A stretch of DNA of 64,000 bases from an uncultured Candidatus Saccharibacteria bacterium (GTDB taxonomy: Bacteria > Patescibacteriota > UBA1384 > DTJR01), in NCBI GenBank assembly GCA_964487045.1, contig CAZAOT010000001.1:70745-134744 (forward strand), written 5' to 3'. Both the position numbers and the translations under genes were made by a program. Under the pieces are notes generated by a model, which saw only the letters and a list, made by a program, of their open reading frames with translations, made no database searches and was not told where the DNA came from. Below are positions 2-30,497 of this stretch, one piece after another (positions within the stretch are counted from its first letter, which is position 1; each line of letters opens with the position of its first letter).

Positions 2-3000
2 ACCGCTTATGTCGCTGGCATTACTTATGACGAGTCCTCTGGTTATATTTATGCCACAATAAACGCAGGAGCGATCAAAACCAAAATTGATGGAACGGGT
101 TATACCAAGTTAAGTTCTCAGGGCTCGGGCTCTGGATACATTTCTAACACCGCCGGTGGGCTGGTCTATAATACAAACGACAACAAACTATATATTGCCG
201 ATACTGGTAATAGTAGATTGACTGTGTTAAATGTTGGTGATTTCTCTGCACTCGCCGAGTCGTCATCGAGCGGTTTTTCAAAAGGCAGGCTGAATTATCC
301 CCGTGGTTTTTCTTATGATTCCTCAACTGGCTACTTTTATATAGCTGACGCATATAACCACCGAATTGTTAAGACAAAAATAGACGGTACTGGCTGGGAA
401 ACTTTTGGTACTTACGCTTCTAGTAGTAACTTGATAGGGCAATTCAATTATCCTTCGGACGTCTATTACGATTCGGCTAGCGAATATTTATATATAGCTG
501 AATCCGGTGGTTCAAGGATAGTTAAAACAAAATTTAATGGCGCTGGTTGGACGAGCTATGGCTCAAATGGGTCGGGTACTGGAAACTTTAATAATCCGTA
601 TGGAATATGGTACGACTCGGGTTCAGACTACATTTATGTTGCCGACACTAGTAACCGGCGAATTGTCAAAACCAAGATTGACGGCACCGGCTGGACGACT
701 TATGGTAGCTTGGGATCGGGGGTAGGTAATTTTAATAGTCCAAGGGATGTTGTTTTTGATTCTGCTTCTGGAAATTTATATATCGCTGACACTAGTAATT
801 ACCGAATTGTTAAGACACAAATAGACGGCACCGGCTGGACGACGTATGGCAGCGCAGGATCGGGGGCAGGTAATTTTAATAGTCCTACGGGGATTTCTTA
901 CGATTCATCAACGGGGAATATTTATGTCGTAGATTATGGTAATTATCGTGTGGTTCGCACACTGATTGATGGTTCGGGGTGGTCGGAGTTTGGGGTTAAT
1001 CATGGTAATGCCGGAGGTTATATTAGTGGAAGCTTTAATAATTTGACTGGAGGGATTTCATATGACTCTTCAACTGGCACCGTTTGGGTTGCTCAAGGAT
1101 CAAATACAGCACAAAGTTACAGCCAAATTATCGGATTTACAATGGGTGGTGGTTGGACAAGCTATGGCTCAAGCGGGTCGGGAGCGGGTAATTTTTCCAC
1201 GCCGTCGGCGGTGTATTACGACCAGCCTTCCGGTTATTTATATATTGCAGATAAAGACAATGAACGCATTGTAAAAACCAAGATCGACGGCACCGGTTGG
1301 ACGACTTATGGCAGCTCAGGATCGGGGGTAGGTCAGTTCGCTTTAAATACTATGGATGGAATTTGGTATGACGCCGCCACTGAATATATTTACATTGCTG
1401 ACACTGGGAATAACCGTATCGTCAAGACAAAAATAGACGGTACCGGCTGGACAACATATGGCAGTTATGGGACTGGGAATGGAAAATTTTCTAATCCACG
1501 CGGTATTAATTATGACTCTGCCTCTGAATATTTATATATTGCCGATTCTGGGAATAACCGTATCGTCAAGACAAAAATAGACGGCACCGGTTGGACGACT
1601 TATGGAAGTGGTGGCGCGGCGATAGATAAACTATCGTCCCCGTATGATGTTAAATACGACCCTGCCAGCGAATATTTATATATTGCCGACTATGGAAATA
1701 GCCGTGTAATTAAAACAAAAATTGATGGAACAGGGCTGACCTTTTACGGAGGCCCGGGTAACTCGAGTAGCTACAATAAAGGTGTAGGATTTTTAACCGG
1801 AATTACCGGTGTAGATTATGATGCGGCAACCGGCTATGTTTATGCAACCGCTTCGGGGACATCAGCCAATCGTATTTCAAAATTTAAAATGGATGGAAGC
1901 TATTTTGCAGCTCTTGGATCAGACGCTGGCAGTGGGATTGATGTATTTAGCGCACCGAACGGAATTGCTTATGATAGTAGCACTGGCAATTGCTACGTTA
2001 TGGATTCAAGTAATAATCGAGTCGCCAGAGTTAATATTGGCGGAGATAATTGGCAATCGATCGGTAGGGGATCACTAGATTTTAATCGTTATTATGGCAG
2101 AGGCTTTTTCTATGATCAATCAGCGGATGATATATTTTTAACCAATTCTTACCCAGGCACAATTTCTAAGATGAAGTTTGGCAGTGAATCGCGCACAAAT
2201 TATTTTATGACTTCTACCACAGGGCAGACAAAAGTCGGTCAAATTTCGTACCCAATAGATGTGTATTATGATAATGCCAGCGGTTATTTTTATATCCTTG
2301 ATGGGTCCACCAGTCTTATTAAAACAAAAGCAGATGGCACTGGGTGGACAACGCTTGGCAGTCTTTCTTCCCCAAAAAGTGTTTGGTATGATTCTGTCTC
2401 AGATTATATCTATGTAGCAGATACCAGTAACGACAGAATTGTTAAGAGTAAGATTGATGGGACTGGTCGTGTTAATTATGGCACCGCTGGAACTGGAATC
2501 GGCAACTTTAATGATCCTCAAGGCGTGTACTACGATGCCGCCTCTGAATACCTCTATATTGCTGACACTGGGAATAACCGAATTGTCAAAACCAAGATTG
2601 ACGGTACCGGCTGGACAACATATGGCACAACCGGTTCTGGTACAGGAAACTTTAACTCTCCCGGGCGCATATATTACGATGCGTCTTCAGATAATATCTA
2701 TATTGCTGATATTACCAACAACAGGATTGTAAGGACTAAAATTGACGGCACCGACTGGGCAACTTTAAATGTTTTTGATACACCTAATGACGTCCAGTAT
2801 GATTCGTCTACGGGATACTTGTATGTTCCATTAGCAAGAGGAAATGTACTTAAAACAAAATGGGATACATATAGTTCATATTCAACTACCTTATCGGCTA
2901 GCAACAAAGTCTTGCTTCAGTCTCAGGGGGACGGTATGAGGCTTGAGATGGATCCTTTAACTTCAAGGATTGTTTTTTATCCAGTATATAATACGAACAA

Positions 3001-5998
3001 GGATATATATGTCAAATCAGATGCTTTAAACACCTCTGGTGATACTTGGACTAAAATTGATGCTTACTGGAATCAGCCTGCGGGTCAATTGAAACTTGTC
3101 GTTGACGATACCGAATATGTAGGAACGGGAACTTGGGATCTACCGAGTTATGGCGACAATTTTTATGTTGGCTCAAATACAGCTGGCACAGAAACTCTCG
3201 GGGGATCAATTGACAATCTACGACTTATGGATATTTACGAAGATTCGGATATGCCGACCAATCCAACTACTGTTCATGGTTATTCTGCTACAAATAAGTC
3301 AATAGAGTTAACGAATGACCAGTGGTACACCTACACGACCACAGGACCGTATTTCGAGTGGTCGGGGGCGGCTGATGTCGGCTCGGGTATTTCTGGTTAT
3401 TATGTTTATTTTGGAACAAATGGATCTGCTAACCCAATAACACAGGGTACATTTCAAGAGGCGGCGACCTATCAAAACACTACTAACCTAACAACGGGTC
3501 AGACTTATTATTTGCGAGTTTCAGCAAAAGATAACTCCAACCATTCGGCAGTCGGAACAACATTATTTACCTACAAATATGATGTTGATCCTCCAAGTCC
3601 GCCAGACCATGTAGATGTGAATCCGCTTGGATGTTCAACCGCGGCAAGCTACACAATGAGTTGGGATGAGCCTAGCGGCGGTAATTCTGGGGTGATGGGC
3701 TACGAGTATAAAAATGGACCTGACGGAGAAGTAGCATATATTACAGAAAGACAGGCTGTTGTCAGCCATTATCAAGATAATGGTAACTTCTTTTATGTAA
3801 GAACTAAAAATAATGCTGGAAGTGTATCAAACTGGCAATCCGCAACTTATTGTTATGCTACGGATGCTGGGCCACCAACTAATCCGACAACAGTTGAAGG
3901 TAAAAATACCTCTGGTGGATCAGTTACTCTAACTAGTGGAAACTGGTATAATTACTCGAGTCCTTACTTCAGTTGGAATGATGGCACTGATGACACTGGC
4001 ATAGCAGGGTATTATGTATATTTTGGAATTTCTGCTGTTGCCGATCCGGCAACCGACGGAGTTTATCAAGCCGGAAAAACATACACTGCTACAGCCTCAA
4101 GCTCTGGGCAAAACTACTATTTAAGAATAAAAGCAAAGGATCTGGCAGGTAATGCTGCGGCAACGACTTGGGAGGCATTTAATTATCGATATTCGACTGA
4201 AGCGCCTGAAAACCCGACAAATCTAACGGTTTTATCGTCTCAAGGAAGTTCTACAAATTTGACTACTGCTACTTGGTACAATCATGCTCATCCATATTTC
4301 GAATGGTCGGGTGCCGGAGGGGGGCAGGGAGTCCAGGGTTATTATGTTTATTTTGGCACAACCGAAGGAGCGGATCCTCTGAACGATGGAGTATTTCAGG
4401 TTGCCAATACTTATTCGCCGACGACTATGAATTCAGGCTCAACTTATTATTTAAAAATTAAAGCCAAGGATAATGCTGGTAACCCTGCGAGTGCAACTTG
4501 GTCGCCGTTTAATTATAAATATGACGGTACGGCTCCCGAAATCCCCGAATTTATTTCAGTTGATCCTAAAAACTGTTCAACAACAACAAGCTTCACTCTA
4601 AGCTGGGATGCGGTTACTGACGGGCAATCGGGGCTTGCTGGTTATGACTATAAAAAGGGTAGTTCTGGTTCGGTGGTTGAGACAGATGAGCATTCGATAG
4701 CCGTGACTGCCTACCAAGAGGGCGATAACATTTTCTATGCCAGAAGCAAAGATAATGCAGGTAATACATCTTCTTGGCAAACTGGTGTATTTTGCTCGAC
4801 TGGAACTGTTCACGTGACTAGTGGTCCTCAAGCCGAAGCAGGTCCTTCTTCGCTTGAAGTATCGTGGGTAACTGACAAGAAATCAACCTCTTATGTGCAG
4901 GTATATGAAGGTAATACTTATATATCGGAACAAGGTCATACATCGTATTCGACTGCTCACTCAGTGCAAACGGTCGGTCTAAAGCCAGAGAAAGAATATC
5001 GATATAAATTAGTTTGGACAGACGAAAATGGTAATTTAGGTGAAAGTGAGTGGAATACAGCGGATACTGCTATCGCTCCAGTAGTGAAGGAGATCAGAGC
5101 AGACGTAACCGATCCTCGGACAGCACTTGTTTCGTGGCAAACTACATATGTTTCTACTTCAGAATTACAATTTGTGGACGGTACTAGAGAAGCTATAAAA
5201 TCTGGAACTGGTACTGATTTTTCACAAAAAATTGACAATCTCGAACCAGGAAAGAATTATCAAATTAGAATCAAATCCATCTCCGACGATGGAACTGAAT
5301 TTTTTGGTCAAGACGTGATAGAGACTCCACCACTTCCGACAATTTCAAATCTTAGAATGGAGTCAGACAATAAAGGTTCAAGTGTAAAGATTAAGGCTGA
5401 TTGGATTACCAATACTGAAACTACCCAAAGTCTTTTTTACGGATTAAAGGGAGAATCCAAAAAAGAAGTTTCATCTAGCGAGAAAAAGATAGAGCATAGC
5501 CTGGAAATTTCGGGCCTTCAAGATCAGACCGAGTATGAAATATATGTTTCTGGAGCAGATAAGTATGGCAATGTCATCAATTCCGAAGTAAGAACATTTA
5601 CTACTCCTATTGATACTAGACCGCCACAGATTTCCGAAATCACTACTGAGAGCTCAAACGTAGGATTAAACAAACTTGATAAAGCCCAAATAGCTGTATC
5701 GTGGAAGACTGACGAGCCTGCCTCTAGTTATATCGAATATTCTGAAGGCATTAGTGGCGATGATTACTCTAGCAAAACAACCGAGGACAAGAACTACTCC
5801 ACGAGTCGTGTGATTATTATTCCTGACTTAGATCCAAATCGAGCCTATCATATGAGGGTTGTGTCTACTGACAAAGCAGGAAACGTTACTAAATCAGAGG
5901 ATGTTTCGGTTGTTCCTGGAGAAGTACCGCGATCACTCTTGAAAGTATTGTTATCAACTTTTGAGAATGTGTTTGGTTGGTTGGGGAACTTGATTTAA
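2..5998 (+). CDS. Giant surface protein, 5'-truncated at window edge. It has >25 NHL-type beta-propeller repeats (IVKTKIDGTGWTTYGS...NFNSP...YYD...YIYIAD), then 3-4 FN3-like modules (HPYFEWSG...GYYVYFG...YYL..KAKDNAGN), PAP-N/FN3-like domains and a conserved C-terminal tail.
   Basis: Frame 2 is open from nt 2 with the same repeat motif, so the gene starts upstream of the window; the track gives 1926 aa from an internal Met at 218. Repeats and FN3 signatures were read directly from the translation. Confidence 0.8.
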   Translation, partial: TAYVAGITYDESSGYIYATINAGAIKTKIDGTGYTKLSSQGSGSGYISNTAGGLVYNTNDNKLYIADTGNSRLTVLNVGDFSALAESSSSGFSKGRLNYPRGFSYDSSTGYFYIADAYNHRIVKTKIDGTGWETFGTYASSSNLIGQFNYPSDVYYDSASEYLYIAESGGSRIVKTKFNGAGWTSYGSNGSGTGNFNNPYGIWYDSGSDYIYVADTSNRRIVKTKIDGTGWTTYGSLGSGVGNFNSPRDVVFDSASGNLYIADTSNYRIVKTQIDGTGWTTYGSAGSGAGNFNSPTGISYDSSTGNIYVVDYGNYRVVRTLIDGSGWSEFGVNHGNAGGYISGSFNNLTGGISYDSSTGTVWVAQGSNTAQSYSQIIGFTMGGGWTSYGSSGSGAGNFSTPSAVYYDQPSGYLYIADKDNERIVKTKIDGTGWTTYGSSGSGVGQFALNTMDGIWYDAATEYIYIADTGNNRIVKTKIDGTGWTTYGSYGTGNGKFSNPRGINYDSASEYLYIADSGNNRIVKTKIDGTGWTTYGSGGAAIDKLSSPYDVKYDPASEYLYIADYGNSRVIKTKIDGTGLTFYGGPGNSSSYNKGVGFLTGITGVDYDAATGYVYATASGTSANRISKFKMDGSYFAALGSDAGSGIDVFSAPNGIAYDSSTGNCYVMDSSNNRVARVNIGGDNWQSIGRGSLDFNRYYGRGFFYDQSADDIFLTNSYPGTISKMKFGSESRTNYFMTSTTGQTKVGQISYPIDVYYDNASGYFYILDGSTSLIKTKADGTGWTTLGSLSSPKSVWYDSVSDYIYVADTSNDRIVKSKIDGTGRVNYGTAGTGIGNFNDPQGVYYDAASEYLYIADTGNNRIVKTKIDGTGWTTYGTTGSGTGNFNSPGRIYYDASSDNIYIADITNNRIVRTKIDGTDWATLNVFDTPNDVQYDSSTGYLYVPLARGNVLKTKWDTYSSYSTTLSASNKVLLQSQGDGMRLEMDPLTSRIVFYPVYNTNKDIYVKSDALNTSGDTWTKIDAYWNQPAGQLKLVVDDTEYVGTGTWDLPSYGDNFYVGSNTAGTETLGGSIDNLRLMDIYEDSDMPTNPTTVHGYSATNKSIELTNDQWYTYTTTGPYFEWSGAADVGSGISGYYVYFGTNGSANPITQGTFQEAATYQNTTNLTTGQTYYLRVSAKDNSNHSAVGTTLFTYKYDVDPPSPPDHVDVNPLGCSTAASYTMSWDEPSGGNSGVMGYEYKNGPDGEVAYITERQAVVSHYQDNGNFFYVRTKNNAGSVSNWQSATYCYATDAGPPTNPTTVEGKNTSGGSVTLTSGNWYNYSSPYFSWNDGTDDTGIAGYYVYFGISAVADPATDGVYQAGKTYTATASSSGQNYYLRIKAKDLAGNAAATTWEAFNYRYSTEAPENPTNLTVLSSQGSSTNLTTATWYNHAHPYFEWSGAGGGQGVQGYYVYFGTTEGADPLNDGVFQVANTYSPTTMNSGSTYYLKIKAKDNAGNPASATWSPFNYKYDGTAPEIPEFISVDPKNCSTTTSFTLSWDAVTDGQSGLAGYDYKKGSSGSVVETDEHSIAVTAYQEGDNIFYARSKDNAGNTSSWQTGVFCSTGTVHVTSGPQAEAGPSSLEVSWVTDKKSTSYVQVYEGNTYISEQGHTSYSTAHSVQTVGLKPEKEYRYKLVWTDENGNLGESEWNTADTAIAPVVKEIRADVTDPRTALVSWQTTYVSTSELQFVDGTREAIKSGTGTDFSQKIDNLEPGKNYQIRIKSISDDGTEFFGQDVIETPPLPTISNLRMESDNKGSSVKIKADWITNTETTQSLFYGLKGESKKEVSSSEKKIEHSLEISGLQDQTEYEIYVSGADKYGNVINSEVRTFTTPIDTRPPQISEITTESSNVGLNKLDKAQIAVSWKTDEPASSYIEYSEGISGDDYSSKTTEDKNYSTSRVIIIPDLDPNRAYHMRVVSTDKAGNVTKSEDVSVVPGEVPRSLLKVLLSTFENVFGWLGNLI

Positions 5999-6744: not shown

Positions 6745-9700
6745 ATGGGAGGGCGTATTTATAAGGTTGTTTACAGGACGAAAACTGTTGGCCGTAGGTT
6801 TAGCCGTGCCTTTGGTAATCTTTTTTTTGATGCTATCCAGGTAGTAAAAGTTTTATTCAAAATTAGGCGTTGCCCTGAAAAATTTTTGTCTAAATTTTTA
6901 ATATTAGCATGCCTAATCTCAATGGCTGTTTTAGTTTATGTTTATCCGTCGTCTGCAAATAGCAAATCTTATTCGATAACTACAAAAGAAGATTGGGAGG
7001 GAGGCACTCTTTCTAATCTTATAACTACTGATGCTCCCGGGGATCTTAAACTTGCTTCGGGTGGAACACTTTCTCATCAGGCTTGGCAAGACCCTCCAAA
7101 TACTGTTGGCTCTGGTGCAGCTGCTTCGGATGGGACAGATATTTATTTGCTCCGGGGTAATTACGATATTAATTTTTATAAGTATTCGAGTGCAAAAAAT
7201 ACTTGGTCGACATTGGCTGACGCTCCAGTGCAGGTTGGCCAAAGTAGTGCGCTTACTTATGATAACAGCGGTCATTTTTATGCTTTTTTTGGTAGAAATA
7301 CTCGCCAGTTTTATAAATACACAATCGCAACAAATTCTTGGACTGCTCTGGGTGACTTGCCCGACACGGTTAATATTGGTTCAAATATGGTGTTTACTAA
7401 CGGCAAGTTGTATATCTTGCGCTCAAACGCAACGACTGATTTTTGGTCATATACAATCGAAACAGGCGCTTGGGCAACCCTCAAGGCAACGCCTGCTACA
7501 TTTACAACCGCAAACGGATTTGTGACAGATGGGACTTATATTTATGCCTGTCGAGGTAATACTTTATGGTATAGGTACAACATCGCTTCAAATATTTGGG
7601 AGGCAATGACGACAGTTCTGCCAATTTCTCTAGCAGAGCAAACAGATTTTGTTTTGAGAAATGGAAGTATTTATTTTGCCGCACCCAGCTCTGCAACATA
7701 TTACAAGTGTGAACTTAGTGGTTTGGCTTGTACCGGAAATGCGTGGACAACGGCTACAACACTTCCTGCCGCAACTCGTTATAGCAACGCTGTCTACAAT
7801 GCATCCGATGATTATATTTATATTTTTCGTGGTAATAGTACTTACGATTTTTGGAAATATAGGCCCGGGGAGAGCAAAGTTGCTGGTCCTCAAATTTTTC
7901 CGCAAAACTTTACTACTGGAGGAGATATTGTTTACGGTGGAGGCGACACGGTCTATGGCTTGAAGGGAGCAGCAGCAGCCAATGGTTTTTATTCATATTC
8001 GATTGCCTCAGGCACATGGACACTCAAATCAGTCACTGGCTTGCCAACCCTCAGCAATGATGCAAAGACTGTAAAAGCGGGGGATAAGATTTATACATCA
8101 TCGGCAGCAAGTACTGCCTTCACAGCTTACGACACTACCAATGATGCGGCTGGTTGGGTAGCTAAAGCGGTTTCTCCGGGGGCTTTCGGAGCAGGTACAT
8201 CATTTACGTATCTCGGTGGGGATCTTATCTATGCGATGAGAGGTGCGGGTACTGTAAGTTTCTATGCCTACAGCATTTCAAATAATAACTGGTCAACATT
8301 TGACCCAGCCGATCTGCCAGCTGGTCTCGCACCAAGCATTGGTGCCCGCACTGTGACTAATGGTACTGAAATATTTGCGACAATGGGTAATGGAAGTAGT
8401 AAATTTTATAAGTATGAAGCCCAAAGCAATACTTGGGAAGAGAAGACTCAGCTTCCATTTGGCGCATATTATGGAACGGATCTGACATATTACAACGGAA
8501 AAATTTATGCAATCGATGGAAACTATCGGTCCGGACTATACGAATATGATATTTCAGCAAATAGTTGGAGAAAATTAGCCGACCTTCAGACCAGAACGAA
8601 TCTAAATAATGGAATGTGGTCAGGAAGTTCTATCGAATACGTAGGAAACAATGATCTGATGATCACTTTCGGGGCATCAAATATGGTTTTCTTTTATGAT
8701 GTTGATTCAAATACTTTTGCTTCCAGCGGATCTTACGAGTCAGCTTCAATCGACTTGGGAAATGTTTCAGCTTGGGGCTCGCTAACTGTAGCCAAGACAA
8801 CTCCGAGTGGAACTTCGGTTGTGGTTGAGACCAAAACTAGTGCCGACAACACCAATTGGCCTGAAAATTGGACTGCAGTATCTGGCACAACTATTGGATC
8901 TGACATTAATCGGTATGTAAAAATAAAGATTACTTTGAACGCAAATGGTGATAGAACACTTGCTCCGACAGTCAGCTCTCTAACCTTAAATTATAATCCC
9001 GATGATGTTGATCCAACTAATCCTCAGCAGGGTTCATTCACGGGACTTTCAGCAGAGGGGGGCACTGCGATAACGTCAACGACTGCGTACAGACACGAAC
9101 ATCCTTATTTCAGCTGGTCTGCAGGCGCTGATGCTGATTCTTATGTAGAAGGATATTATGTGTATTTTGGTTCTAATCAATCAGCGGATCCACAAGTAGA
9201 TGGAGTGTATCAAACAGCTACAAATTACAAAGTAAATGACAAGATTGCCGTTGGGAACAACTATTTATTAGTTAAAACCAAGGACCAGGCTGGAAATATT
9301 ACCGATAGTGCTGTCCAAGGGTTTATCTATAATTATATAGGAGCTACGCCTGCTACCTCGACTTTGTCTTCTGACGCGGATTTTAACGCTGGAGACAAAA
9401 CTAACCTTAGTGTCTCATCGGATAGCTTTGCGTTAGAGTCAAAAGCTGGCTTTTGGCAACAACAAAAGCTTTCTGTTTTTCCAGCCACGAGCGCTGCAGG
9501 AGCATCGATTATTAAGAAGGGTAATAAGCTCTATGCTACTCGCGGCTCGACAAATGCTTTTTATTCCTATGATTATGATACAGATACTTGGGCAACACTA
9601 ACGAGTACTAATCTAGGAGCTATGACAACCAACGGAGGCCTGGTCGACGGTCCTGGAAATTATATTTACGCATACCGTGGTAGCACTAGCGCATCATTCT

Positions 9701-12700
9701 ATAGATATGACGTGACAGATGATGCAGCTGGTTGGAGTGATGCCGATGCGGATGATGTGCCTGCTGCGCTAGGCGCTGGCTGCAATTCAACTTATGATGG
9801 CTCTAGATATATTTATATGTTTAAGGGCAACTCAAATGTTTTTTATAGGTTTGATCCTCAGGGCGACTCTAATGGGACCTGGGAATCAATGGAGCCGGTA
9901 AATTTTGGGACAAACACAGCAAATAACACAGTCGCTGACGGAGGCCAGCTTGTCCATGACGGAAGCGGAACTATATATGCAATTCAGGGAGGTCATTATC
10001 CTGGCGGATTTGCCAAATATACTATTTCAAGTGATACATGGACGCCGTTAAACTTTATTCCTGTTGGACCGTCAAGTGGTGCTTCTATGGTATGGGATTC
10101 TACAACTTCAAAAATATTATTAATTCCGGGCTATTCACGTGAATATTTATATAGTTATAACCCAGCAAATTCTTCCTGGACAAAGCTCAGTGATGCCCCG
10201 ATGACTTTTACGACAGGTACATCGGCTACAATTTCAGGCGACTACATGTATGTAATCAAGGGAAATAGCACAGGGTTCTATCGCTATAGAATTTCCAAAA
10301 ATTCATGGGAAATGCCAAGCTTTAATTTATTTGGAACGAATTTTCAGGGTGGATCGTCTTTCGCCTCTATTACGGGCGCGTTTGTTTTAAAAGGTGATGG
10401 CGATAATTTCTATTTAAACAGAGGTAATCTCGATACTAGGTTCATAAGGTATAATTCAAGAACAGGCGCCAGTAACCAAATGCCATCACTTCCAAGTGCT
10501 TCCAACCAATATTCTCTGCAAGTTTATGACGATGATCGAAATGATATATACTATTATTCAACCGCAGACAGTACCTTCTATAAATATGATATTGATACTG
10601 AATCATGGGAGAAGATTGCTACGGATCTTTTGCCGCAAGCGCCAGCAGCTGGATCTTCTTTTGTTTATGACGGCTCTACTTATATATACTATTTTAGAGG
10701 CGGAACAGTTTGGTACAGATATAATATTACTGCCGATGCAGGCTCGAGATGGTCAACAGCACTGCCTACAACCGGAATGTCAACTCTGGGTTACGGTTCA
10801 GATACAGTCATCAAAGATGGGTTTGTTTATGCTAATAGAGGATCGGTTGGAAATCCCAATGAATTTCGAAAGTTTGACCTGAGTCAATTACCTTCAGGTT
10901 CATGGTCCAATTTAACATCGATTCCTTATCCGGTCGGATACGATGGATTTTTAGAGGACGGTGGAAATGGCAAGCTCTATATACTAGCTGCCCATAACAC
11001 TAATAGATTTTACGAGTATACAATTGGTACTGACTCCTGGGCTCAGGTGGCAAATTTTCCAGGAGTTGCATATCAAGGTTCGGCTGGTGCCTCCGATAAA
11101 TTAAGTAAGATCTTTGCAATCTCTGGAAACGGAACTGGTTCGTATGCAGATGGTCTTTATAGCTATGTAATACAATCAGCAACATCTTCGTTTAAAGAAG
11201 AGGGAAATTTCATTTCTCCATCAATCGAACTCTCTGGAGCATACAAATTCGCTAATCTTACGCTAAATTACGAAGAAAAAAATAACACAACCGTCACTGT
11301 GTATACTCAAACTTCGGCAAACGGAGCAAGCTGGAGTGATTGGTCGCAGGCCACTAATATGAAGAGCTATGGCTTATCCGAGTTGGCTCACCAATATCAA
11401 ATTAATTCACCGCTTGCCAGATATATAAAAATAAAAGTTGAGTTAGTTTCTGGCGATGGGGTACTGTCACCGTCAATCAGCCAAATAGATATAAATTACT
11501 ATCAAGACAATACGAAACCAACAAACCCGCAAGCGTTATCGCAGGCAAAATCTGCTAAAGTTTCCGGTAGTGATATTACAAGCGGAATGGATAAATGGTA
11601 CAATTTCCCGTCAGCTTACTTCGCAATGCCAGAATCGGAGGCTGCAAATGGTGCATCAGATGGCGCAAACGGCTCCGGAGTAGCAGGATATTATATATAT
11701 ATGGGAACGAGTTCAGACGCTGTTCCTTCTCAAAGTCGGGGTATCGCCAATCAAGTTGGTGAAGCAAATCTTCATTATCAGACAGATCTTGATCTTGAAT
11801 TATCCGTGGATAGCTCTGCGCTTGAAACAGGTAAAACATATTATCTCTTGACGCAATCTAAGGACGCAGCTGGCAATGTGGCTGAAGCTATAAAAACATT
11901 GTTTATTTATAGATTTGATTCAACTGCTCCTTCAGCGCCGGCATCTGTTAATGCGACACAAAATGATCAAAAAACCCAATTTAACTTTACATGGCCTGCG
12001 CAGGGCGCGGAAGGAGGAGCGGCCGATGTTGATCCAAACGATTCTGACTCTCTGATTAACCCCTCTGGTTTAGCTGGTTATAAATATAAGACTGGAGCTG
12101 CATGGTCGTCATTAATCACTGAGTCAACTGTAAGTATTTCAAATAATCAAAATTTAGCAGGGGAGAATACTTTTCACTTGATAGCAATTGACAATGCAGG
12201 TAACGAATCAAGTGAAGCGACAGTTAAGTTTTATATCGCTCCGACCCAACCGCAAAATTTAAGTGCCTTGCCGGTTACATCGGCTCAAAATCCATCTGAA
12301 ACTAACAACTTTAAGTTTGTCTGGGAAGCTCCAACGTCAATGAATGGCAGTATAAAGCAGTATCGCTATTCGGTTAACGCACCGCCAACCGCTTTGAATA
12401 CCGTTAATCAGGTTATTACAGGTACGACGCTAGGCTGGGGTGCTTACGCAACCCAACAGGGCAAGAACACGCTATATATTGTTGCTGAAGGCGATTGGGG
12501 TGGAAGCAATATTAATTACGATGCCTATGCAACCCTTGATTTTTATATCGAAACGCCCGCACCAAATCCTCCCGAAAACTTATCGGTTACAGACAGCTCT
12601 AACAGATCCAGCTCTGACTATAGATTGACTGTGGTTTGGAGTGAGCCAAAGACTGGCGAGGAGCCAGAAAATTATGTGGTAAAGCGATCAACTGATAATC

Positions 12701-14109
12701 AAAGTTTTTCGGAGGTTGGTACTACTTCTTCAACCGGGTTTCTGGATTCGGACTTGGAAGGAGATAAGACTTATTATTATAAAGTTTTTTCAAAAGATTC
12801 TGCAGGTGCACTTTCTGAAGATCAAGGCTCAAACGGTACGGTATCTAAGAAACCGACCGGAAAATATTCCACTCCACCAACGATCGCAGAATCATCAATT
12901 CATTCAGTAGCAGGAGCATCAACCGTTGAAATTAACTGGGTTACTAATCGTGCATCGGACTCATTTGTTGAATATGGTACAACTGAGGCTCTTGGGCAGA
13001 CTTACGGACAAAGAGAAGAGGTTACGGAACATAAGGTTAAGATTGATGGGCTAAAGGCTGGCAACAAGTATTATTTCAAAGCCCAGAGCTTGGATCCGGG
13101 TGATTTGAGAGACTACTCACAGACAGTTGGATATTCTGAGGTTCATGAGTTTGAAACAACGGCTGCTCCTACATTATCGAGCGTATCTTTCTCGAACATT
13201 ACTACAAGTTCGGCGATTATGAGTTTTGATACTAATAAAACTTCAACTGCGAAAATACAATATGGGACATCGACAGAGTATGGAAAAGAAATTGTTGATT
13301 CGTCAGGATCTGGAACTACTAAGCACACCGTTCTCCTTGAGGATTTACAGGATGGGACAACGTATCAGCTAAAAGTGACAATTACAGATGAAGAAAATAA
13401 TATCGTTGATTCTCCGGGTCATGCTTTTACCACAAGGGCAAAGCCAAAAATTGAGGCAATGAATATTGAGCCGATCAAAGATGCGTCCGATACGTCCGTC
13501 AAAGTCACTTGCGTCGCTAATGTCGAGGTAGCGTTCTCAGTTCAATATAGTCCATCTACTGATTCGGCGAAAAAAGAAGTAGCAACTGCTGAATTTAAGA
13601 AAGTGCACGAATTCACAGTCAATGGCTTGTCTGACCAGAGTAAATATTCTTTTCAGGCAATTGCTAGAGATCAACTTGGGAATGAGGTAAAGTCCGAAGT
13701 CAAAACATTTGATACACCAAACGACTCAAGACCACCTGCCATTACTGATATCTCGACTGAGAGTTCGAATGTGGGTCTTAATAAGCAGGACAAGGCGCAA
13801 ATTGTTGTTGCTTGGAAAACTGATGAGCCTACGACTAGCATGATTGAATATGGCGAAGGAATGTCTGGAACGGATTACAGCCAGAAGACTAAAGAAGACG
13901 CAACCATGACCAATTCCCACCTTGTAATTATTTCAGATCTTGAGCCAAGCCAAGCTTATCACATAAGGATTTCGTCTACGGATAAGGGAGGGAATAATAC
14001 TAAATCAGAGGATATTTCGGTTGTTCCTGGCGAAGTTCCAAAATCTGTCTTACAGATGCTACTTAATACTTTTAAAGATGTTTTTGGATGGATGGGAAAG
14101 TTGATATAG
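6745..14109 (+). CDS. Giant (2454 aa) membrane-anchored surface protein. N-terminal signal/anchor, Kelch-like beta-propeller blades (~50-aa repeats with YxY/FYKY/W motifs), FN3-like modules, PAP-N/FN3 domains, and a conserved C-terminal module shared with the 2-5998 protein.
   Basis: Long ORF. Hydrophobic segment FLILACLISMAVLVYVY near the N-terminus. The C-terminal 130 aa are ~60% identical to the C-terminus of the first giant protein (…SEDISVVPGEVPKSVLQMLLNTFKDVFGWMGKLI). Start uncertain: an in-frame TTG before SKFLILACLIS is possible. Confidence 0.8.
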   Translation: MGGRIYKVVYRTKTVGRRFSRAFGNLFFDAIQVVKVLFKIRRCPEKFLSKFLILACLISMAVLVYVYPSSANSKSYSITTKEDWEGGTLSNLITTDAPGDLKLASGGTLSHQAWQDPPNTVGSGAAASDGTDIYLLRGNYDINFYKYSSAKNTWSTLADAPVQVGQSSALTYDNSGHFYAFFGRNTRQFYKYTIATNSWTALGDLPDTVNIGSNMVFTNGKLYILRSNATTDFWSYTIETGAWATLKATPATFTTANGFVTDGTYIYACRGNTLWYRYNIASNIWEAMTTVLPISLAEQTDFVLRNGSIYFAAPSSATYYKCELSGLACTGNAWTTATTLPAATRYSNAVYNASDDYIYIFRGNSTYDFWKYRPGESKVAGPQIFPQNFTTGGDIVYGGGDTVYGLKGAAAANGFYSYSIASGTWTLKSVTGLPTLSNDAKTVKAGDKIYTSSAASTAFTAYDTTNDAAGWVAKAVSPGAFGAGTSFTYLGGDLIYAMRGAGTVSFYAYSISNNNWSTFDPADLPAGLAPSIGARTVTNGTEIFATMGNGSSKFYKYEAQSNTWEEKTQLPFGAYYGTDLTYYNGKIYAIDGNYRSGLYEYDISANSWRKLADLQTRTNLNNGMWSGSSIEYVGNNDLMITFGASNMVFFYDVDSNTFASSGSYESASIDLGNVSAWGSLTVAKTTPSGTSVVVETKTSADNTNWPENWTAVSGTTIGSDINRYVKIKITLNANGDRTLAPTVSSLTLNYNPDDVDPTNPQQGSFTGLSAEGGTAITSTTAYRHEHPYFSWSAGADADSYVEGYYVYFGSNQSADPQVDGVYQTATNYKVNDKIAVGNNYLLVKTKDQAGNITDSAVQGFIYNYIGATPATSTLSSDADFNAGDKTNLSVSSDSFALESKAGFWQQQKLSVFPATSAAGASIIKKGNKLYATRGSTNAFYSYDYDTDTWATLTSTNLGAMTTNGGLVDGPGNYIYAYRGSTSASFYRYDVTDDAAGWSDADADDVPAALGAGCNSTYDGSRYIYMFKGNSNVFYRFDPQGDSNGTWESMEPVNFGTNTANNTVADGGQLVHDGSGTIYAIQGGHYPGGFAKYTISSDTWTPLNFIPVGPSSGASMVWDSTTSKILLIPGYSREYLYSYNPANSSWTKLSDAPMTFTTGTSATISGDYMYVIKGNSTGFYRYRISKNSWEMPSFNLFGTNFQGGSSFASITGAFVLKGDGDNFYLNRGNLDTRFIRYNSRTGASNQMPSLPSASNQYSLQVYDDDRNDIYYYSTADSTFYKYDIDTESWEKIATDLLPQAPAAGSSFVYDGSTYIYYFRGGTVWYRYNITADAGSRWSTALPTTGMSTLGYGSDTVIKDGFVYANRGSVGNPNEFRKFDLSQLPSGSWSNLTSIPYPVGYDGFLEDGGNGKLYILAAHNTNRFYEYTIGTDSWAQVANFPGVAYQGSAGASDKLSKIFAISGNGTGSYADGLYSYVIQSATSSFKEEGNFISPSIELSGAYKFANLTLNYEEKNNTTVTVYTQTSANGASWSDWSQATNMKSYGLSELAHQYQINSPLARYIKIKVELVSGDGVLSPSISQIDINYYQDNTKPTNPQALSQAKSAKVSGSDITSGMDKWYNFPSAYFAMPESEAANGASDGANGSGVAGYYIYMGTSSDAVPSQSRGIANQVGEANLHYQTDLDLELSVDSSALETGKTYYLLTQSKDAAGNVAEAIKTLFIYRFDSTAPSAPASVNATQNDQKTQFNFTWPAQGAEGGAADVDPNDSDSLINPSGLAGYKYKTGAAWSSLITESTVSISNNQNLAGENTFHLIAIDNAGNESSEATVKFYIAPTQPQNLSALPVTSAQNPSETNNFKFVWEAPTSMNGSIKQYRYSVNAPPTALNTVNQVITGTTLGWGAYATQQGKNTLYIVAEGDWGGSNINYDAYATLDFYIETPAPNPPENLSVTDSSNRSSSDYRLTVVWSEPKTGEEPENYVVKRSTDNQSFSEVGTTSSTGFLDSDLEGDKTYYYKVFSKDSAGALSEDQGSNGTVSKKPTGKYSTPPTIAESSIHSVAGASTVEINWVTNRASDSFVEYGTTEALGQTYGQREEVTEHKVKIDGLKAGNKYYFKAQSLDPGDLRDYSQTVGYSEVHEFETTAAPTLSSVSFSNITTSSAIMSFDTNKTSTAKIQYGTSTEYGKEIVDSSGSGTTKHTVLLEDLQDGTTYQLKVTITDEENNIVDSPGHAFTTRAKPKIEAMNIEPIKDASDTSVKVTCVANVEVAFSVQYSPSTDSAKKEVATAEFKKVHEFTVNGLSDQSKYSFQAIARDQLGNEVKSEVKTFDTPNDSRPPAITDISTESSNVGLNKQDKAQIVVAWKTDEPTTSMIEYGEGMSGTDYSQKTKEDATMTNSHLVIISDLEPSQAYHIRISSTDKGGNNTKSEDISVVPGEVPKSVLQMLLNTFKDVFGWMGKLI

Positions 14110-25162: not shown

Positions 25163-25273
25163 TTTCCTCCTTATGTCTTATCTAATTAAATCTCTATCGG
25201 AGGGATTAGTCAATTATCTTATCTATCTCACTTACACCTTTAAATTTATCTGCAAACCTGTTAATATACTCGT

Positions 25274-26452
25274 ATGTCGTTATCTATCGGAATAGTAGGG
25301 CTGCCAAATGTTGGCAAGTCGACGCTGTTTAATGCAATGCTCAAAAGTGAGCTTGCTGAGGCAGCTAATTTTGCGTTTACGACAATCGATCCTAACGTAG
25401 GAATTGTCGATGTGCCCGATAATCGCCTCGAAAAATTATCAGAAATCGAGAATTCTGATCGAATCGTACCTGCAACGGTCAAATTTATTGATATTGCCGG
25501 GATAATTGCCGGAGCACATAAAGGTGAGGGGCTTGGTAATAAATTTCTAGCTAATATTAGAGAAGTTGACGCAATTGCTATGGTTGTTCGAACTTTTGAA
25601 AATAAAGACGTGATGCATGTCTCAGGCGATATCAATCCCAAAAGTGATATTGAGACGATCATGACCGAGCTGGTGCTAGCTGATATGGAAACACTTGAGA
25701 AAAGGATACCTGCAGTTGAGAAAGAAGTAAGGGCAGACGAGAAATCAGCGGCTAAAAAGTTAGAGGCATACCATAAGGTTTCGAAAGTTTTTGAAAATTC
25801 TCGCCCAGCAATTGAGGCGGGGCTTGATGAAGAAGAGAAATTTCTTCTTAAAGAGGCAAATTTTCTGACATTAAAGCCATTTTTATACATATTTAATGTT
25901 TCGGAAGATAAGGTTGGAGAATACCCAGCCGATCTTATCGAGGCATACGAGCTCGAGGGATTGGTCAGGACTTGCCCCGTTAGAGATAGCCGACGCCTTG
26001 ATGGGGGAGAAGAGTCGGGTGCTGTTCGAGAGTCGGCGTCGATCTCTAACGGGGTGAACGCGACCGTTATTTCTGCCAAAATCGAGTCAGAATTAAATTC
26101 TTTGAGCGATATAGATCGAATCGAATATCTTAGCGACCTTGGACTTGAAGAACCAGGACTTAACCGACTAATAGTATCGGCATATAAAACCTTAGGTTTG
26201 GTTTCATTCTTCACTGCAGGTCCGATGGAAGCTAGAGCTTGGACTATCAACGAAGGCGATAAAGCGCCTCGAGCAGCTGGAAAAATTCATCAAGATTTTG
26301 AAAAAAAGTTTATCAAGGCTGAAGTAGTAGCCTACGATGATTTCGTATCTCTTGGTGGCTGGAAGGCTGCTAAAGAGGCTGGTAAAGTAAGGCTCGAAGG
26401 CAAAGAATATCAGGTCAAAGAAGCTGACGTTTTGTTTATTCATCACGGGTAG
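25274..26452 (+). CDS. ychF: Ribosome-binding ATPase YchF (Obg-family GTPase) with a 30-aa in-frame insertion
   Basis: MSLSIGIVGLPNVGKSTLFNAM, …DIAGIIAGAHKGEGLGNKFLANIREVDAI…, C-terminal TGS domain …AGKIHQDFEKKFIKAEVV… collinear with E. coli YchF, except for the extra segment LVRTCPVRDSRRLDGGEESGAVRESASISNG. Confidence 0.9.
   Translation: MSLSIGIVGLPNVGKSTLFNAMLKSELAEAANFAFTTIDPNVGIVDVPDNRLEKLSEIENSDRIVPATVKFIDIAGIIAGAHKGEGLGNKFLANIREVDAIAMVVRTFENKDVMHVSGDINPKSDIETIMTELVLADMETLEKRIPAVEKEVRADEKSAAKKLEAYHKVSKVFENSRPAIEAGLDEEEKFLLKEANFLTLKPFLYIFNVSEDKVGEYPADLIEAYELEGLVRTCPVRDSRRLDGGEESGAVRESASISNGVNATVISAKIESELNSLSDIDRIEYLSDLGLEEPGLNRLIVSAYKTLGLVSFFTAGPMEARAWTINEGDKAPRAAGKIHQDFEKKFIKAEVVAYDDFVSLGGWKAAKEAGKVRLEGKEYQVKEADVLFIHHG
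25975..26054. repeat. GC-rich palindromic element inserted in-frame inside ychF. Arms ccccgttagagatagccgacgcc / ggcgtcgatctctaacgggg, with internal direct repeat agagtcgg.
   Basis: Read directly; ~20-bp inverted-repeat arms. Composition contrasts with the AT-rich host gene. Reading frame is preserved. Confidence 0.7.
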
Positions 26453-26473: not shown

Positions 26474-26571
26474 TATAATTCTTAGCAGAAAGTAAAGTTT
26501 GTCCCACTCCGCCCCAAGGAGGGCTTCGCGGGACTTTCGGGGCAGTTATACTGCCTCGAAACGGAGGAAAA
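26474..26571 (+). promoter_or_regulatory. Extended -10 promoter (TGgTATAAT, 26471-26479) followed by a structured ~80-nt GC-rich leader with hairpins at 26501-26534 and 26541-26555, upstream of the 26572 CDS
   Basis: Hexamer and hairpins read directly. SD GGAGG at 26563-26567. Confidence 0.4.
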
Positions 26572-29640: not shown

Positions 29641-29747
29641 CAATATTGATAAGTCTGGCGTTCCACCCGCCAGACGCATCCTGGACACTGCGGGATTTTC
29701 GAGGTGGTACTCGAAAATTATTTTAAAAAAATTAAAAAATAGCTGAA

Positions 29748-29822
29748 GGCCCCTTCGTCTAGTGGTTAGGACGTCAGGTTCTCATCCTGGCAACGAGGGT
29801 TCGATTCCCTCAGGGGTCACCA
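29748..29822 (+). tRNA. tRNA-Glu (anticodon CTC), CCA encoded
   Basis: Cloverleaf by hand: acceptor GGCCCCT/AGGGGTC, D-loop AGTGGTTAG, anticodon stem TCAGG/CCTGG with loop TTCTCAT, T-arm GAGGGTTCGATTCCCTC, discriminator A + CCA. Followed by T6. Confidence 0.9.
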
Positions 29823-29897
29823 GCTATTTTTTAATTCAGTCAGCTTGCTCTCCGTGCGGTTTGCGAGTGGAGCGCAAACCTAAATCGCTAAAGAATT

Positions 29898-29918: not shown

Positions 29919-29935
29919 GTTTATAAAATCAAAGC

Positions 29936-29985
29936 GGCCAGGTTCCGACTCTTTTACCCGTGGGTAAAAGAGTCGGAACCTGGCC
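29936..29985. repeat. Perfect 24-bp inverted repeat ggccaggttccgactcttttaccc-gt-gggtaaaagagtcggaacctggcc
   Basis: Arms verified base by base as exact reverse complements. Sits at the boundary of a ~215-bp GC-rich non-coding stretch (29986-30200). Confidence 0.8.
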
Positions 29986-30497
29986 GTGTGTGGGTCCCCA
30001 ATGGCGCCGCTCGTGCATCTCATGCTTGAAGCATCTGCGCGGGCCGCCGGCGCCGGTGTCGCGCGTCTGCTTAACGCGGTCAAAGGTGGGGTTCCGTCGG
30101 AACGACGAGCCGATCGGAGGTCCATACTTCATGCTACCATCTCCTCTTGTGCTCCGGACGAACCGGAGTTAATGGGAACGAACATCCTCGGCTTTGACTA
30201 AGCTAGTCTCAGCTCAAGAATTAGTAGGCATATATTAGCAAAAATGCTCAAAATTGTCAACCCCTATAACTAAAATATATTGTCGCTTTAGCGACCCCGC
30301 TAACAAAAGTCGATTTTGCGCTTCGAGAGGCCGATTCTAGCGAAGCGATTTTCGGAGTGTCTCAGAAAGCAAAATCGTCTTTTGGGCGTGTTAGGGTGAG
30401 GAAAGTTTTGAAAACCTAGGGAATTTGCTCGCAACAAATCCCTGGGTTTTCAAATTGTCTGTTAGCTTTAGCTAACTAATTTGATATAATTAAATTA

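Follow-up and report, generated by a model that had tools for sequence, protein, structure and literature searches.

A ychF gene interrupted in frame by a short palindromic element lies in the stretch of DNA described here, 64 kb of contig CAZAOT010000001.1 from an uncultured Candidatus Saccharibacteria bacterium (hereafter, the window). The element is an 80-nt hairpin without any open reading frame (ORF) of its own and has the appearance of a MITE (a transposable element of miniature size with inverted repeats). Its coordinates, together with those of its parts and of other features of the window, are collected in Table 1.

A first-pass annotation had described a palindrome carried in frame by ychF, with inverted-repeat arms and a twofold internal direct repeat, and all of these are present in the sequence as described. 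In a repeat search, the arms (25975-25998 and 26031-26054) measure 24 nt each, are 83% complementary and are separated by 32 nt, their outer 13 nt pairing perfectly. The 111-nt region of the element folds, in single-stranded form, at -50.5 kcal/mol (z = -3.9), a stability equalled by none of 200 shuffled sequences, and inverted repeats of this size class are found only four times in the whole window. The same annotation called the element strongly GC-rich, which holds insofar as it is richer than its gene, although local GC (0.55-0.59, against 0.42 in the window) is not extreme. No second copy is found within the window, even with three mismatches allowed per end, and a half-site at 25190-25202, with two mismatches to the element end, is at chance level. 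At gathering score, Rfam returned only tRNAs and a c-di-GMP riboswitch from the window and ten further loci, and no family matching the element.

Table 1. Coordinates of the ychF gene, the hairpin element and other features of the window. P0002 and P0003 are close orthologs of the window YchF, and P0012 is a YchF from Berkelbacteria.
Feature	Position	Strand	Remarks
ychF, host gene of the insertion	25274-26452	+	392-aa ORF; Pfam MMR_HSR1 and YchF-GTPase_C
Flank preceding the element, GTCAGGACTTG	25964-25974	+	first 8 nt (GTCAGGAC) equal 9 nt of the ortholog (GTCAAGGAC) less one A
Upstream flank CTTG	25971-25974	+	slot where family members have a TNNA/YNNR duplication
Hairpin element, 80 nt	25975-26054		MITE-like, without ORF; read in frame as ..CPVRD..ISNG..; absent from P0002/P0003
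5' terminal repeat CCCCGTTAGAGAT	25975-25987	+	read P-V-R-D; same 13-mer ends the P0012 insert, short copies and GIY-YIG units
Inner arm CGACGCC	25991-25997	+	lengthens the hairpin beyond a 3-nt bulge
Interior with direct repeat AGAGTCGG, twice	26011-26036	+	repeats at 26011-26018 and 26029-26036
Inner arm GGCGTCG	26035-26041	+	7-bp perfect pairing with 25991-25997
3' terminal repeat ATCTCTAACGGGG	26042-26054	+	read I-S-N-G; perfect complement of CCCCGTTAGAGAT
Downstream flank TGAA	26055-26058	+	only TG in common with upstream CTTG
GC-rich segment between ychF and next gene	26495-26565		two hairpins, -34 kcal/mol, z = -2.3
Inverted repeat around tRNA-Glu	29730-29836		25-nt arms, 88% complementary
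tRNA-Glu(CTC)	29748-29822		
Perfect 25-nt palindrome, CGGCCAGGTTCCGACTCTTTTACCC / GGGTAAAAGAGTCGGAACCTGGCCG	29935-29986		arms 2 nt apart; ~110 nt downstream of tRNA-Glu(CTC)
Very long ORF	218-5998		1,926 aa
Very long ORF	6745-14109		2,454 aa

Insertions in ychF

The best named matches of the window YchF belong to the candidate phyla radiation (CPR)/Patescibacteria, near Berkelbacteria. Its ten nearest orthologs (P0002-P0011; 356-368 aa, most of them 363-365 aa; 78-84% identity overall, and 84-90% over aligned columns for those aligned) are without the extra segment. The closest among them, such as P0002 and P0003, are 365 aa long and share 83-84% identity overall and 88-90% over aligned columns. 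Where the orthologs have LVKDYEATVISA, the window protein reads LVR[TCPVRDSRRLDGGEESGAVRESASISNG]VNATVISA, its LVR aligning with their LVK. At the DNA level, the site is uninterrupted in P0002 and P0003: P0003 reads GTC AAG GAC TAT GAG GCG ACC, whereas the window reads GTC AGG ACT TG[80 nt]TG AAC GCG ACC. The net gain over the close orthologs is 81 nt, or 27 aa, rather than the 30 aa counted by the first-pass annotation. Contigs of three separately assembled sequencing runs encode one and the same protein of 392 aa, and the inserted segment is therefore not an assembly artefact.

The two flanks, CTTG and TGAA, have only TG in common, so the window copy lacks a clean 4-nt duplication. Since the 8 nt preceding TTG equal 9 nt of the ortholog minus one A, the most economical history of the site would be insertion of the 80-nt element with a 2-nt TG duplication, followed by a deletion of one nucleotide. 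This deletion probably shifted the element from a closed frame (CCC CGT TAG) to an open one (C CCC GTT AGA GAT, read as PVRD) and probably turned LVKD into LVRT. A target site duplicated over 4 nt fits less well, as it would require a further loss of 3 nt.

The window protein matches the structure of Haemophilus influenzae YchF (1JAL; E = 1e-111), with an alignment that splits at query residues 214-251. In an AlphaFold2 model built with the ortholog alignment, residues 234-259 of the insert are the only ones in the second half of YchF with a predicted local distance difference test (pLDDT) score below 50, and are thus interpreted as a disordered loop of the G domain; the remainder of the protein has a confident fold. 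The insert is bounded in the model by a helix (218-224) and a strand (263-266). Its site lies inside the G domain, after the helix of the NxxE motif and before the strand leading to the SAK motif, and not next to the TGS domain, where the first-pass annotation had placed it. The extra residues are, according to this model, a disordered surface loop within an otherwise confident fold.

Two other ychF genes from the CPR carry the same ends at different positions. In the Berkelbacteria protein P0012 (locus L004), a 23-aa insert is found in the C-terminal domain; it adds 69 nt (65 + 4), and its DNA consists of CA, CCCCGTTAGAGAT, 39 nt, ATCTCTAACGGGG and CA again. A third, independent copy comes from a metagenome-assembled genome (MAG) of Candidatus Sungbacteria (L115 5443-5510). 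It adds 72 nt (68 + 4), and its translation, in the PLEI...SLTG frame, is flanked by ...LRESGL and LDQLIR.... This copy was retrieved by an unbiased scan of DNA and not via YchF.

Besides these, YchF genes from other CPR genomes contain in-frame insertions of other palindromic repeat families, in or near the loop of the window insert. In P0077 (L224 2240-2320, a CPR metagenome contig), the canonical NTS core GTCATTCCCGCGCAGGCGGGAATCCAG of Neisseria type is present in frame as an inverted doublet, read HVIPAQAGIQ...RLRGNDK and located about 15 residues upstream of the window insertion site; two further NTS-like cores lie downstream of it in L224. P0028 (L129 10001-11203) and P0031 (L130 4867-6024) have a common GC-rich palindromic insert in the same loop as the window element, of sequence GTCATCGCGAG...GAGATTGCTTCG...CGCAATG[A/G]CGG, and further insertions in this region are found in P0079 and P0103-P0105. 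From just after NxxE up to the strand that precedes SAK, YchF seems to accept such insertions repeatedly.

Gene-less copies and gene-bearing units

The scan covered one genome per GTDB species for paired ends of the pattern CCGTTAGAGAT-N30-60-ATCTCTAACGG, and matched at least 119 genome stretches, both inside and outside genes. Among the matches listed, most are Patescibacteria of many classes, and other hosts are labelled Omnitrophota, Planctomycetota, Elusimicrobiota, Nitrospirota and Ignavibacteriales, with one bin each labelled Methanosarcinales and Gammaproteobacteria. Some genomes are rich in copies, and one Nealsonbacteria MAG has matches on eight of its contigs, as many as four of them within 8 kb. 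The family ends form a 13-bp terminal stem, (C/T)CCCGTTAGAGAT...ATCTCTAACGGG(G/A), and the outermost pair, which lies beyond the 11-mer used for the search, co-varies: among 124 copies, it is CC..GG in 81 and TC..GA in 32. Directly outside the ends there is a 4-nt repeat, exact in 86 of the 124 copies, with the consensus T-N-N-A. This repeat is direct rather than inverted, and its 4-mers vary among copies of one genome, as expected for a target-site duplication.

The family ranges in size from 29 to 136 bp. At the lower limit, a minimal copy of 29 nt (L042 714-742) consists of both ends, in the variant CCCCGTTAGAAAT, and a 3-nt loop. The interiors of the short copies vary and often fold into one or two hairpins; many contain two, forming a three-way junction in which no hammerhead or twister-like core was seen by eye. 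Eight 65-nt copies from different phyla show compensatory changes at 10 of 14 inner pairs, and a subfamily of 59 nt has a polypurine/polypyrimidine interior.

The lengths of the short copies peak at 59, 62, 65 and 68 nt, and leave a remainder of 2 when divided by 3 in 81 of 141 cases (33 and 27 in the other two classes). A length of 3n+2 and a 4-nt duplication together add whole codons, and the frame is therefore kept. At this length, the element can be read from end to end in two frames per strand (PVRD...ISNG and PLEI...SLTG), while the third contains TAG and TAA; insertions into permissive loops can therefore survive in two of three frames on either strand. With intragenic copies defined by an open frame that extends 150 nt or more to each side, only 17 of 140 copies (12%) are intragenic, against 57% of random positions, so that most intragenic insertions have evidently been lost. 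All 17 are of 3n+2 length and in frame, and those of the 59-nt subfamily are found only in the purine-rich, hydrophilic orientation. The hosts confirmed by Pfam are dihydroorotate dehydrogenase, a Mur ligase, an Rnf-type Fe-S protein, CcdA, a UPF0102 protein, YchF and a PMT_2 glycosyltransferase, the last with two in-frame copies (L092 5435-5493 and 6131-6189). An FtsZ-like protein, recognized by eye, has a copy in its C-terminal linker (L023 1671-1729).

Other copies are located at the 5' ends of genes (L011 7337-7403, L079 923-992, L027 3694-3772, L008 1643-1721 and L118 41-119). They contain the start codon, and the protein begins with residues encoded by the element (...KSLTG or ...ISNG). 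Genes started in this way look, by eye, like those for IleRS, ValRS and FtsW.

When 1,838 ORFs of 119 loci were clustered all against all, no recurrent neighbour of the short copies emerged, each family being present at seven loci at most, and the neighbour families inspected are housekeeping genes. No transposase is found among these inspected families, in about 0.9 Mb of neighbouring DNA, a search that left out lone end-like matches and elements of 1-2 kb. In viral contigs, a single short copy and a single distant GIY-YIG gene were found, so phages are no evident vector; the plasmids of cultured bacteria, too, are nearly free of both the short and the gene-bearing forms of the family. In the literature searched, the end sequences retrieved chance primer matches only, and no account was found of this end sequence or of a GIY-YIG element ended by inverted repeats in these phyla.

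The same ends also bracket a gene. At L066, they enclose, together with a TTAA duplication, 272 nt with an 85-aa ORF for a GIY-YIG domain (Pfam E = 1.1e-14), and a 230-nt copy at L101 holds what looks like the decayed start of such an ORF. A search with the GIY-YIG protein gave 5,769 matches, the best 120 of which have 74-86% identity and a commonest length of 86 aa; an exhaustive profile search gave 2,788 clusters at 50% identity (E <= 1e-10). Most of the 22 homologs inspected terminate in ...FLSLTG, that is, in the 3' element end read in frame, and over-called N-termini display ..PVRD.. a few codons ahead of the methionine. In a sample of 81 loci, 80 of them metagenome loci fetched by protein similarity alone (L139-L218) and the other L131, both ends bracket the GIY-YIG gene in 74. 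This unit is 274-306 bp long, with a mode of 279 bp. Its ATG comes about 8 nt after the 5' element end, the last four of its 86 codons (S-L-T-G) are the 3' element end, and the stop codon is provided by the 3' flank, mostly TGAA or TAAA.

The ends of the unit can pair with each other as the ends of the short copies do. In 56 distinct units, 99.2% of the cells of the end-to-end 13-bp stem are paired, and double-sided changes are found at 6 of the 13 pairs, in 36 cells against 6.1 in shuffles, none of 500 shuffles reaching 36. The core CGTTAGA is almost invariant, with one exception, at G. These substitutions show that the two ends are selected to pair.

Thirteen short copies are located on contigs with GIY-YIG units, within 193 kb of flanks. 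The contigs that encode the identical protein P0135 have one common genomic context and are uninformative about recent transposition of the unit. In units of L139-L218, the 3' flank is often TGA followed by ATG within 1-3 nt (TGAATG, TGAACATG), which suggests that units lie immediately upstream of the start codon of a host gene.

Relation to known repeat systems

The closest parallel for the gene-bearing unit is Ssn, a group of single-domain, site-specific GIY-YIG nucleases of about 94 aa that act on single-stranded DNA (ssDNA) and are classified as CDD cd10448 (Chenal et al. 2025, PMC11893778). Ssn proteins bind NTS/SRM hairpin repeats only as ssDNA and cut beside them. The ssn genes are flanked by these repeats, which are dispersed in hundreds of copies and reported to be rarely intragenic (2%), a layout that the authors found to resemble an insertion sequence and compared with IS200/IS605 and REP/RAYT (PMC11893778). 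In both systems, a GIY-YIG-only gene is bracketed by an inverted-repeat motif that is also dispersed as gene-less hairpins. The consensus of the 86-aa family aligns with an SRM-flanked Ssn homolog from Azospirillum (hhalign probability 95.4%, E = 1.7e-8, 29% identity), whose gene, located between sufB and sufC, has pairs of NTS-like hairpins to its left and right. Structures of the sister group UPF0213 align about equally well (1zg2, E = 8e-9), and the family may be closer to either cd10448 or UPF0213. No GIY-YIG gene is found in 40 kb of a Sphingomonas plasmid with NTS copies.

The two systems differ in several respects. The repeat stem described here, CCCCGTTAGAGAT, is unrelated to that of Ssn, CGTCATTCCCGCG..GCGGGAATC, and does not match the NTS/SRM consensus CGTCATTCCCGCGMAVGCGGGAATCYRG, of which true copies are present at the Azospirillum Ssn locus and at the locus of YchF P0077. 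The flanks of the unit are halves of one hairpin with the gene in its loop, whereas ssn genes are flanked by complete hairpins. Here, transposition is indicated by the 4-nt duplications of most short copies and by orthologous sites that are empty, and copies are readable in frame inside essential genes, in contrast to the rarely intragenic NTS. The hosts, finally, are mainly uncultivated phyla, which PMC11893778 does not discuss.

In its behaviour, the family is better compared with the palindromic elements of Rickettsia (RPEs; described by Ogata et al. in 2000 and 2002 and summarized in PMC10969869), which are about 100-150 bp long and restricted to Rickettsia. The first-pass annotation had proposed a selfish palindromic element with RPEs as its precedent. 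The first part agrees with the same ends at 119 or more stretches, the duplications and the orthologs without the insert, and the precedent is apt for an in-frame, tolerated and selfish palindrome. Both are short palindromes lying in frame in unrelated housekeeping genes, with a peptide tolerated by the fold and no internal transposase gene, traits represented here by the palindrome in ychF, its loop of pLDDT <50 and the 17 of 17 intragenic copies in frame. Compared by description, the present family differs in its size range, its 13-bp stem, its 4-nt duplication, its spread over several phyla and its gene-bearing parent.

REP/REPIN-RAYT and IS200/IS605-PATE systems likewise combine dispersed hairpin repeats, an enzyme for folded ssDNA and a gene flanked by its own repeats. 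They use HUH (Y1) transposases with covalent intermediates and make no target duplication, whereas the sole protein associated with the present family is a GIY-YIG nuclease and its short copies have the 4-nt duplication. Bacterial MITEs such as Correia, ERIC and RUP are also small, non-coding and present in many copies, with terminal inverted repeats and occasional in-frame fusions, and they are flanked by target duplications. Such terminal repeats are found here as well (a perfect 13 nt in the window and the same ends in 124 short copies); a 4-nt duplication is exact at 86 of 124 short copies and at 12 of 71 gene-bearing units, and the window copy has CTTG against TGAA. The parents of MITEs are insertion sequences with DDE transposases, and their families are usually lineage-restricted; the longer unit with the present ends encodes a GIY-YIG nuclease only, and its ends co-vary across phyla. 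The family is RPE-like in behaviour and Ssn/SRM-like in machinery.

Origin, mechanism and meaning of the insert

The 80-nt segment can be regarded with good confidence as a gene-less copy of a mobile hairpin family, inserted into the ychF of this lineage and translated as a harmless disordered loop. Gene-less elements of this kind would derive from the parent of about 279 bp, in which the two ends surround the single-domain GIY-YIG gene of 86 codons. By analogy with Ssn nucleases, which cut ssDNA beside hairpin repeats, we infer that the GIY-YIG protein mobilizes the element in the form of folded ssDNA. The nuclease would recognize the folded stem in ssDNA and cut at its base, and host repair or ligation would finish excision and insertion. 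A more far-reaching proposal, tentative and rather short of probable, is that the unit, as an autonomous transposon and the smallest known, would found a new mechanistic class. Its only protein would be a nuclease recognizing the folded stem of the unit itself, and its gene-less derivatives would have evolved the 3n+2 length, the 4-nt duplication adding to it, and open frames that let them colonize essential genes such as ychF across many uncultivated phyla.

Several observations weigh against the main account, that of a gene-less copy from a mobile hairpin family. The window holds a single copy of the family, its flanks show no clean duplication, and its net gain of 81 nt requires an additional change of 1 or 3 nt. 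The phylum labels of the hosts depend on metagenome bins. Exact 4-nt duplications are present at only 12 of 71 gene-bearing units, whose 3' flanks are biased to TGAA/TAAA; the mode of insertion of these units may therefore be different, or many of them may be old and vertically inherited. The flank pair of the window, CTTG...TGAA, is found at five gene-bearing units as well, and many of the loci among them may be orthologous. Neither strand-transfer nor ligase chemistry is known for the GIY-YIG domain, nor any activity for the 86-aa nuclease. The covariation of the ends could also come from an mRNA stem that encloses the nuclease gene instead.

The first alternative to a copy mobilized by its own nuclease is an ordinary MITE on which a conventional transposase acts in trans (such as one of the DDE type with 4-bp duplications), with the GIY-YIG gene as a passenger or an unrelated selfish colonizer. 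Terminal inverted repeats together with a duplication of 4 nt classically mark cut-and-paste transposons, and the scarcity of clean duplications at gene-bearing units would also fit. This explanation is nevertheless unlikely given the lack of a recurrent neighbour among the 1,838 ORFs. Moreover, the gene-bearing unit always consists of the ends and the GIY-YIG gene only, with an ORF finishing inside the 3' end, which speaks of tight integration and not of cargo, and compensatory covariation would be needless for two independent transposase-binding sites. A 13-bp end starting with CCC and a 4-bp TNNA target resemble piggyBac/IS1380; a DDE parent of this type was rejected on the same grounds, with no recurrent neighbour and no transposase in the families inspected across about 0.9 Mb. 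Less probable still is a role at the RNA level (mRNA stabilization, terminator-like function, translation control or an undescribed motif), with the ychF copy retained for its function. The strong fold of the element and the compensatory changes in the 13-bp stem and the inner hairpins would be in its favour, and so would the 5' end preceding the ATG of the gene-bearing units by about 8 nt, from where end pairing could mask the ribosome-binding region. Against it stand the silence of Rfam at gathering score over the window and ten loci, the orthologous ychF genes that work without the element, and the target-like 4-nt duplications, which vary among copies and point to insertion as DNA. The intragenic copies, besides, follow constraints of reading frame and hydrophilicity, which shows translation into protein and not selection at the RNA level.

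That the loop arose by an ordinary indel or duplication with a coincidental palindrome, or as an artefact of assembly, is very improbable. Extra residues in or near this loop are also found in the YchF of other CPR lineages, yet these insertions are themselves palindromic repeat elements; identical 13-nt ends recur at another ychF site (P0012) and in at least 119 other stretches, and the three independent assemblies agree. Other candidates were discarded as well. An integron attC site would have the order RYYYAAC...GTTRRRY, the reverse of GTTAGAG on the 5' side and CTCTAAC on the 3' side, and no cassette array or integrase is present among the neighbours inspected. For an intein, whose loss the first-pass annotation had offered as an alternative, or a group I or group II intron, the segment has only 80 nt, no Rfam match and no domain beyond YchF; nothing about it is intein-like, and its ends are inverted repeats at the DNA level that intergenic copies share.

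Besides the hairpin element, the window has other features of structure (Table 1). The spacer between ychF and the next gene is 119 nt long, whereas the corresponding spacers of L126 and L127, two orthologous loci, have about 50 nt, and its GC-rich segment, of which no second copy is found within the window, may be another inserted element. The arms of the inverted repeat around tRNA-Glu overhang the gene by 14-18 nt at both ends, which places the tRNA inside a longer stem rich in A/T. Both very long ORFs are located in the first 14 kb.

The family extends the occurrence of RPE-like selfish DNA inside essential proteins beyond Rickettsia, here with a candidate enzyme attached, unlike in RPEs. 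It also supports, through its duplications, its empty sites and three independent insertions in ychF genes, the suggestion made in 2025 that Ssn-type GIY-YIG genes and their hairpins are mobile elements (PMC11893778). In MAG proteins, many unusual segments such as "PVRD...ISNG" or "...SLTG", and many extended N-termini, are copies of the element and not lineage-specific features, which matters for annotation. If the 86-aa nuclease truly drives mobility, this would be a new transposition chemistry, and a compact, hairpin-specific DNA nuclease would join the Ssn toolbox.

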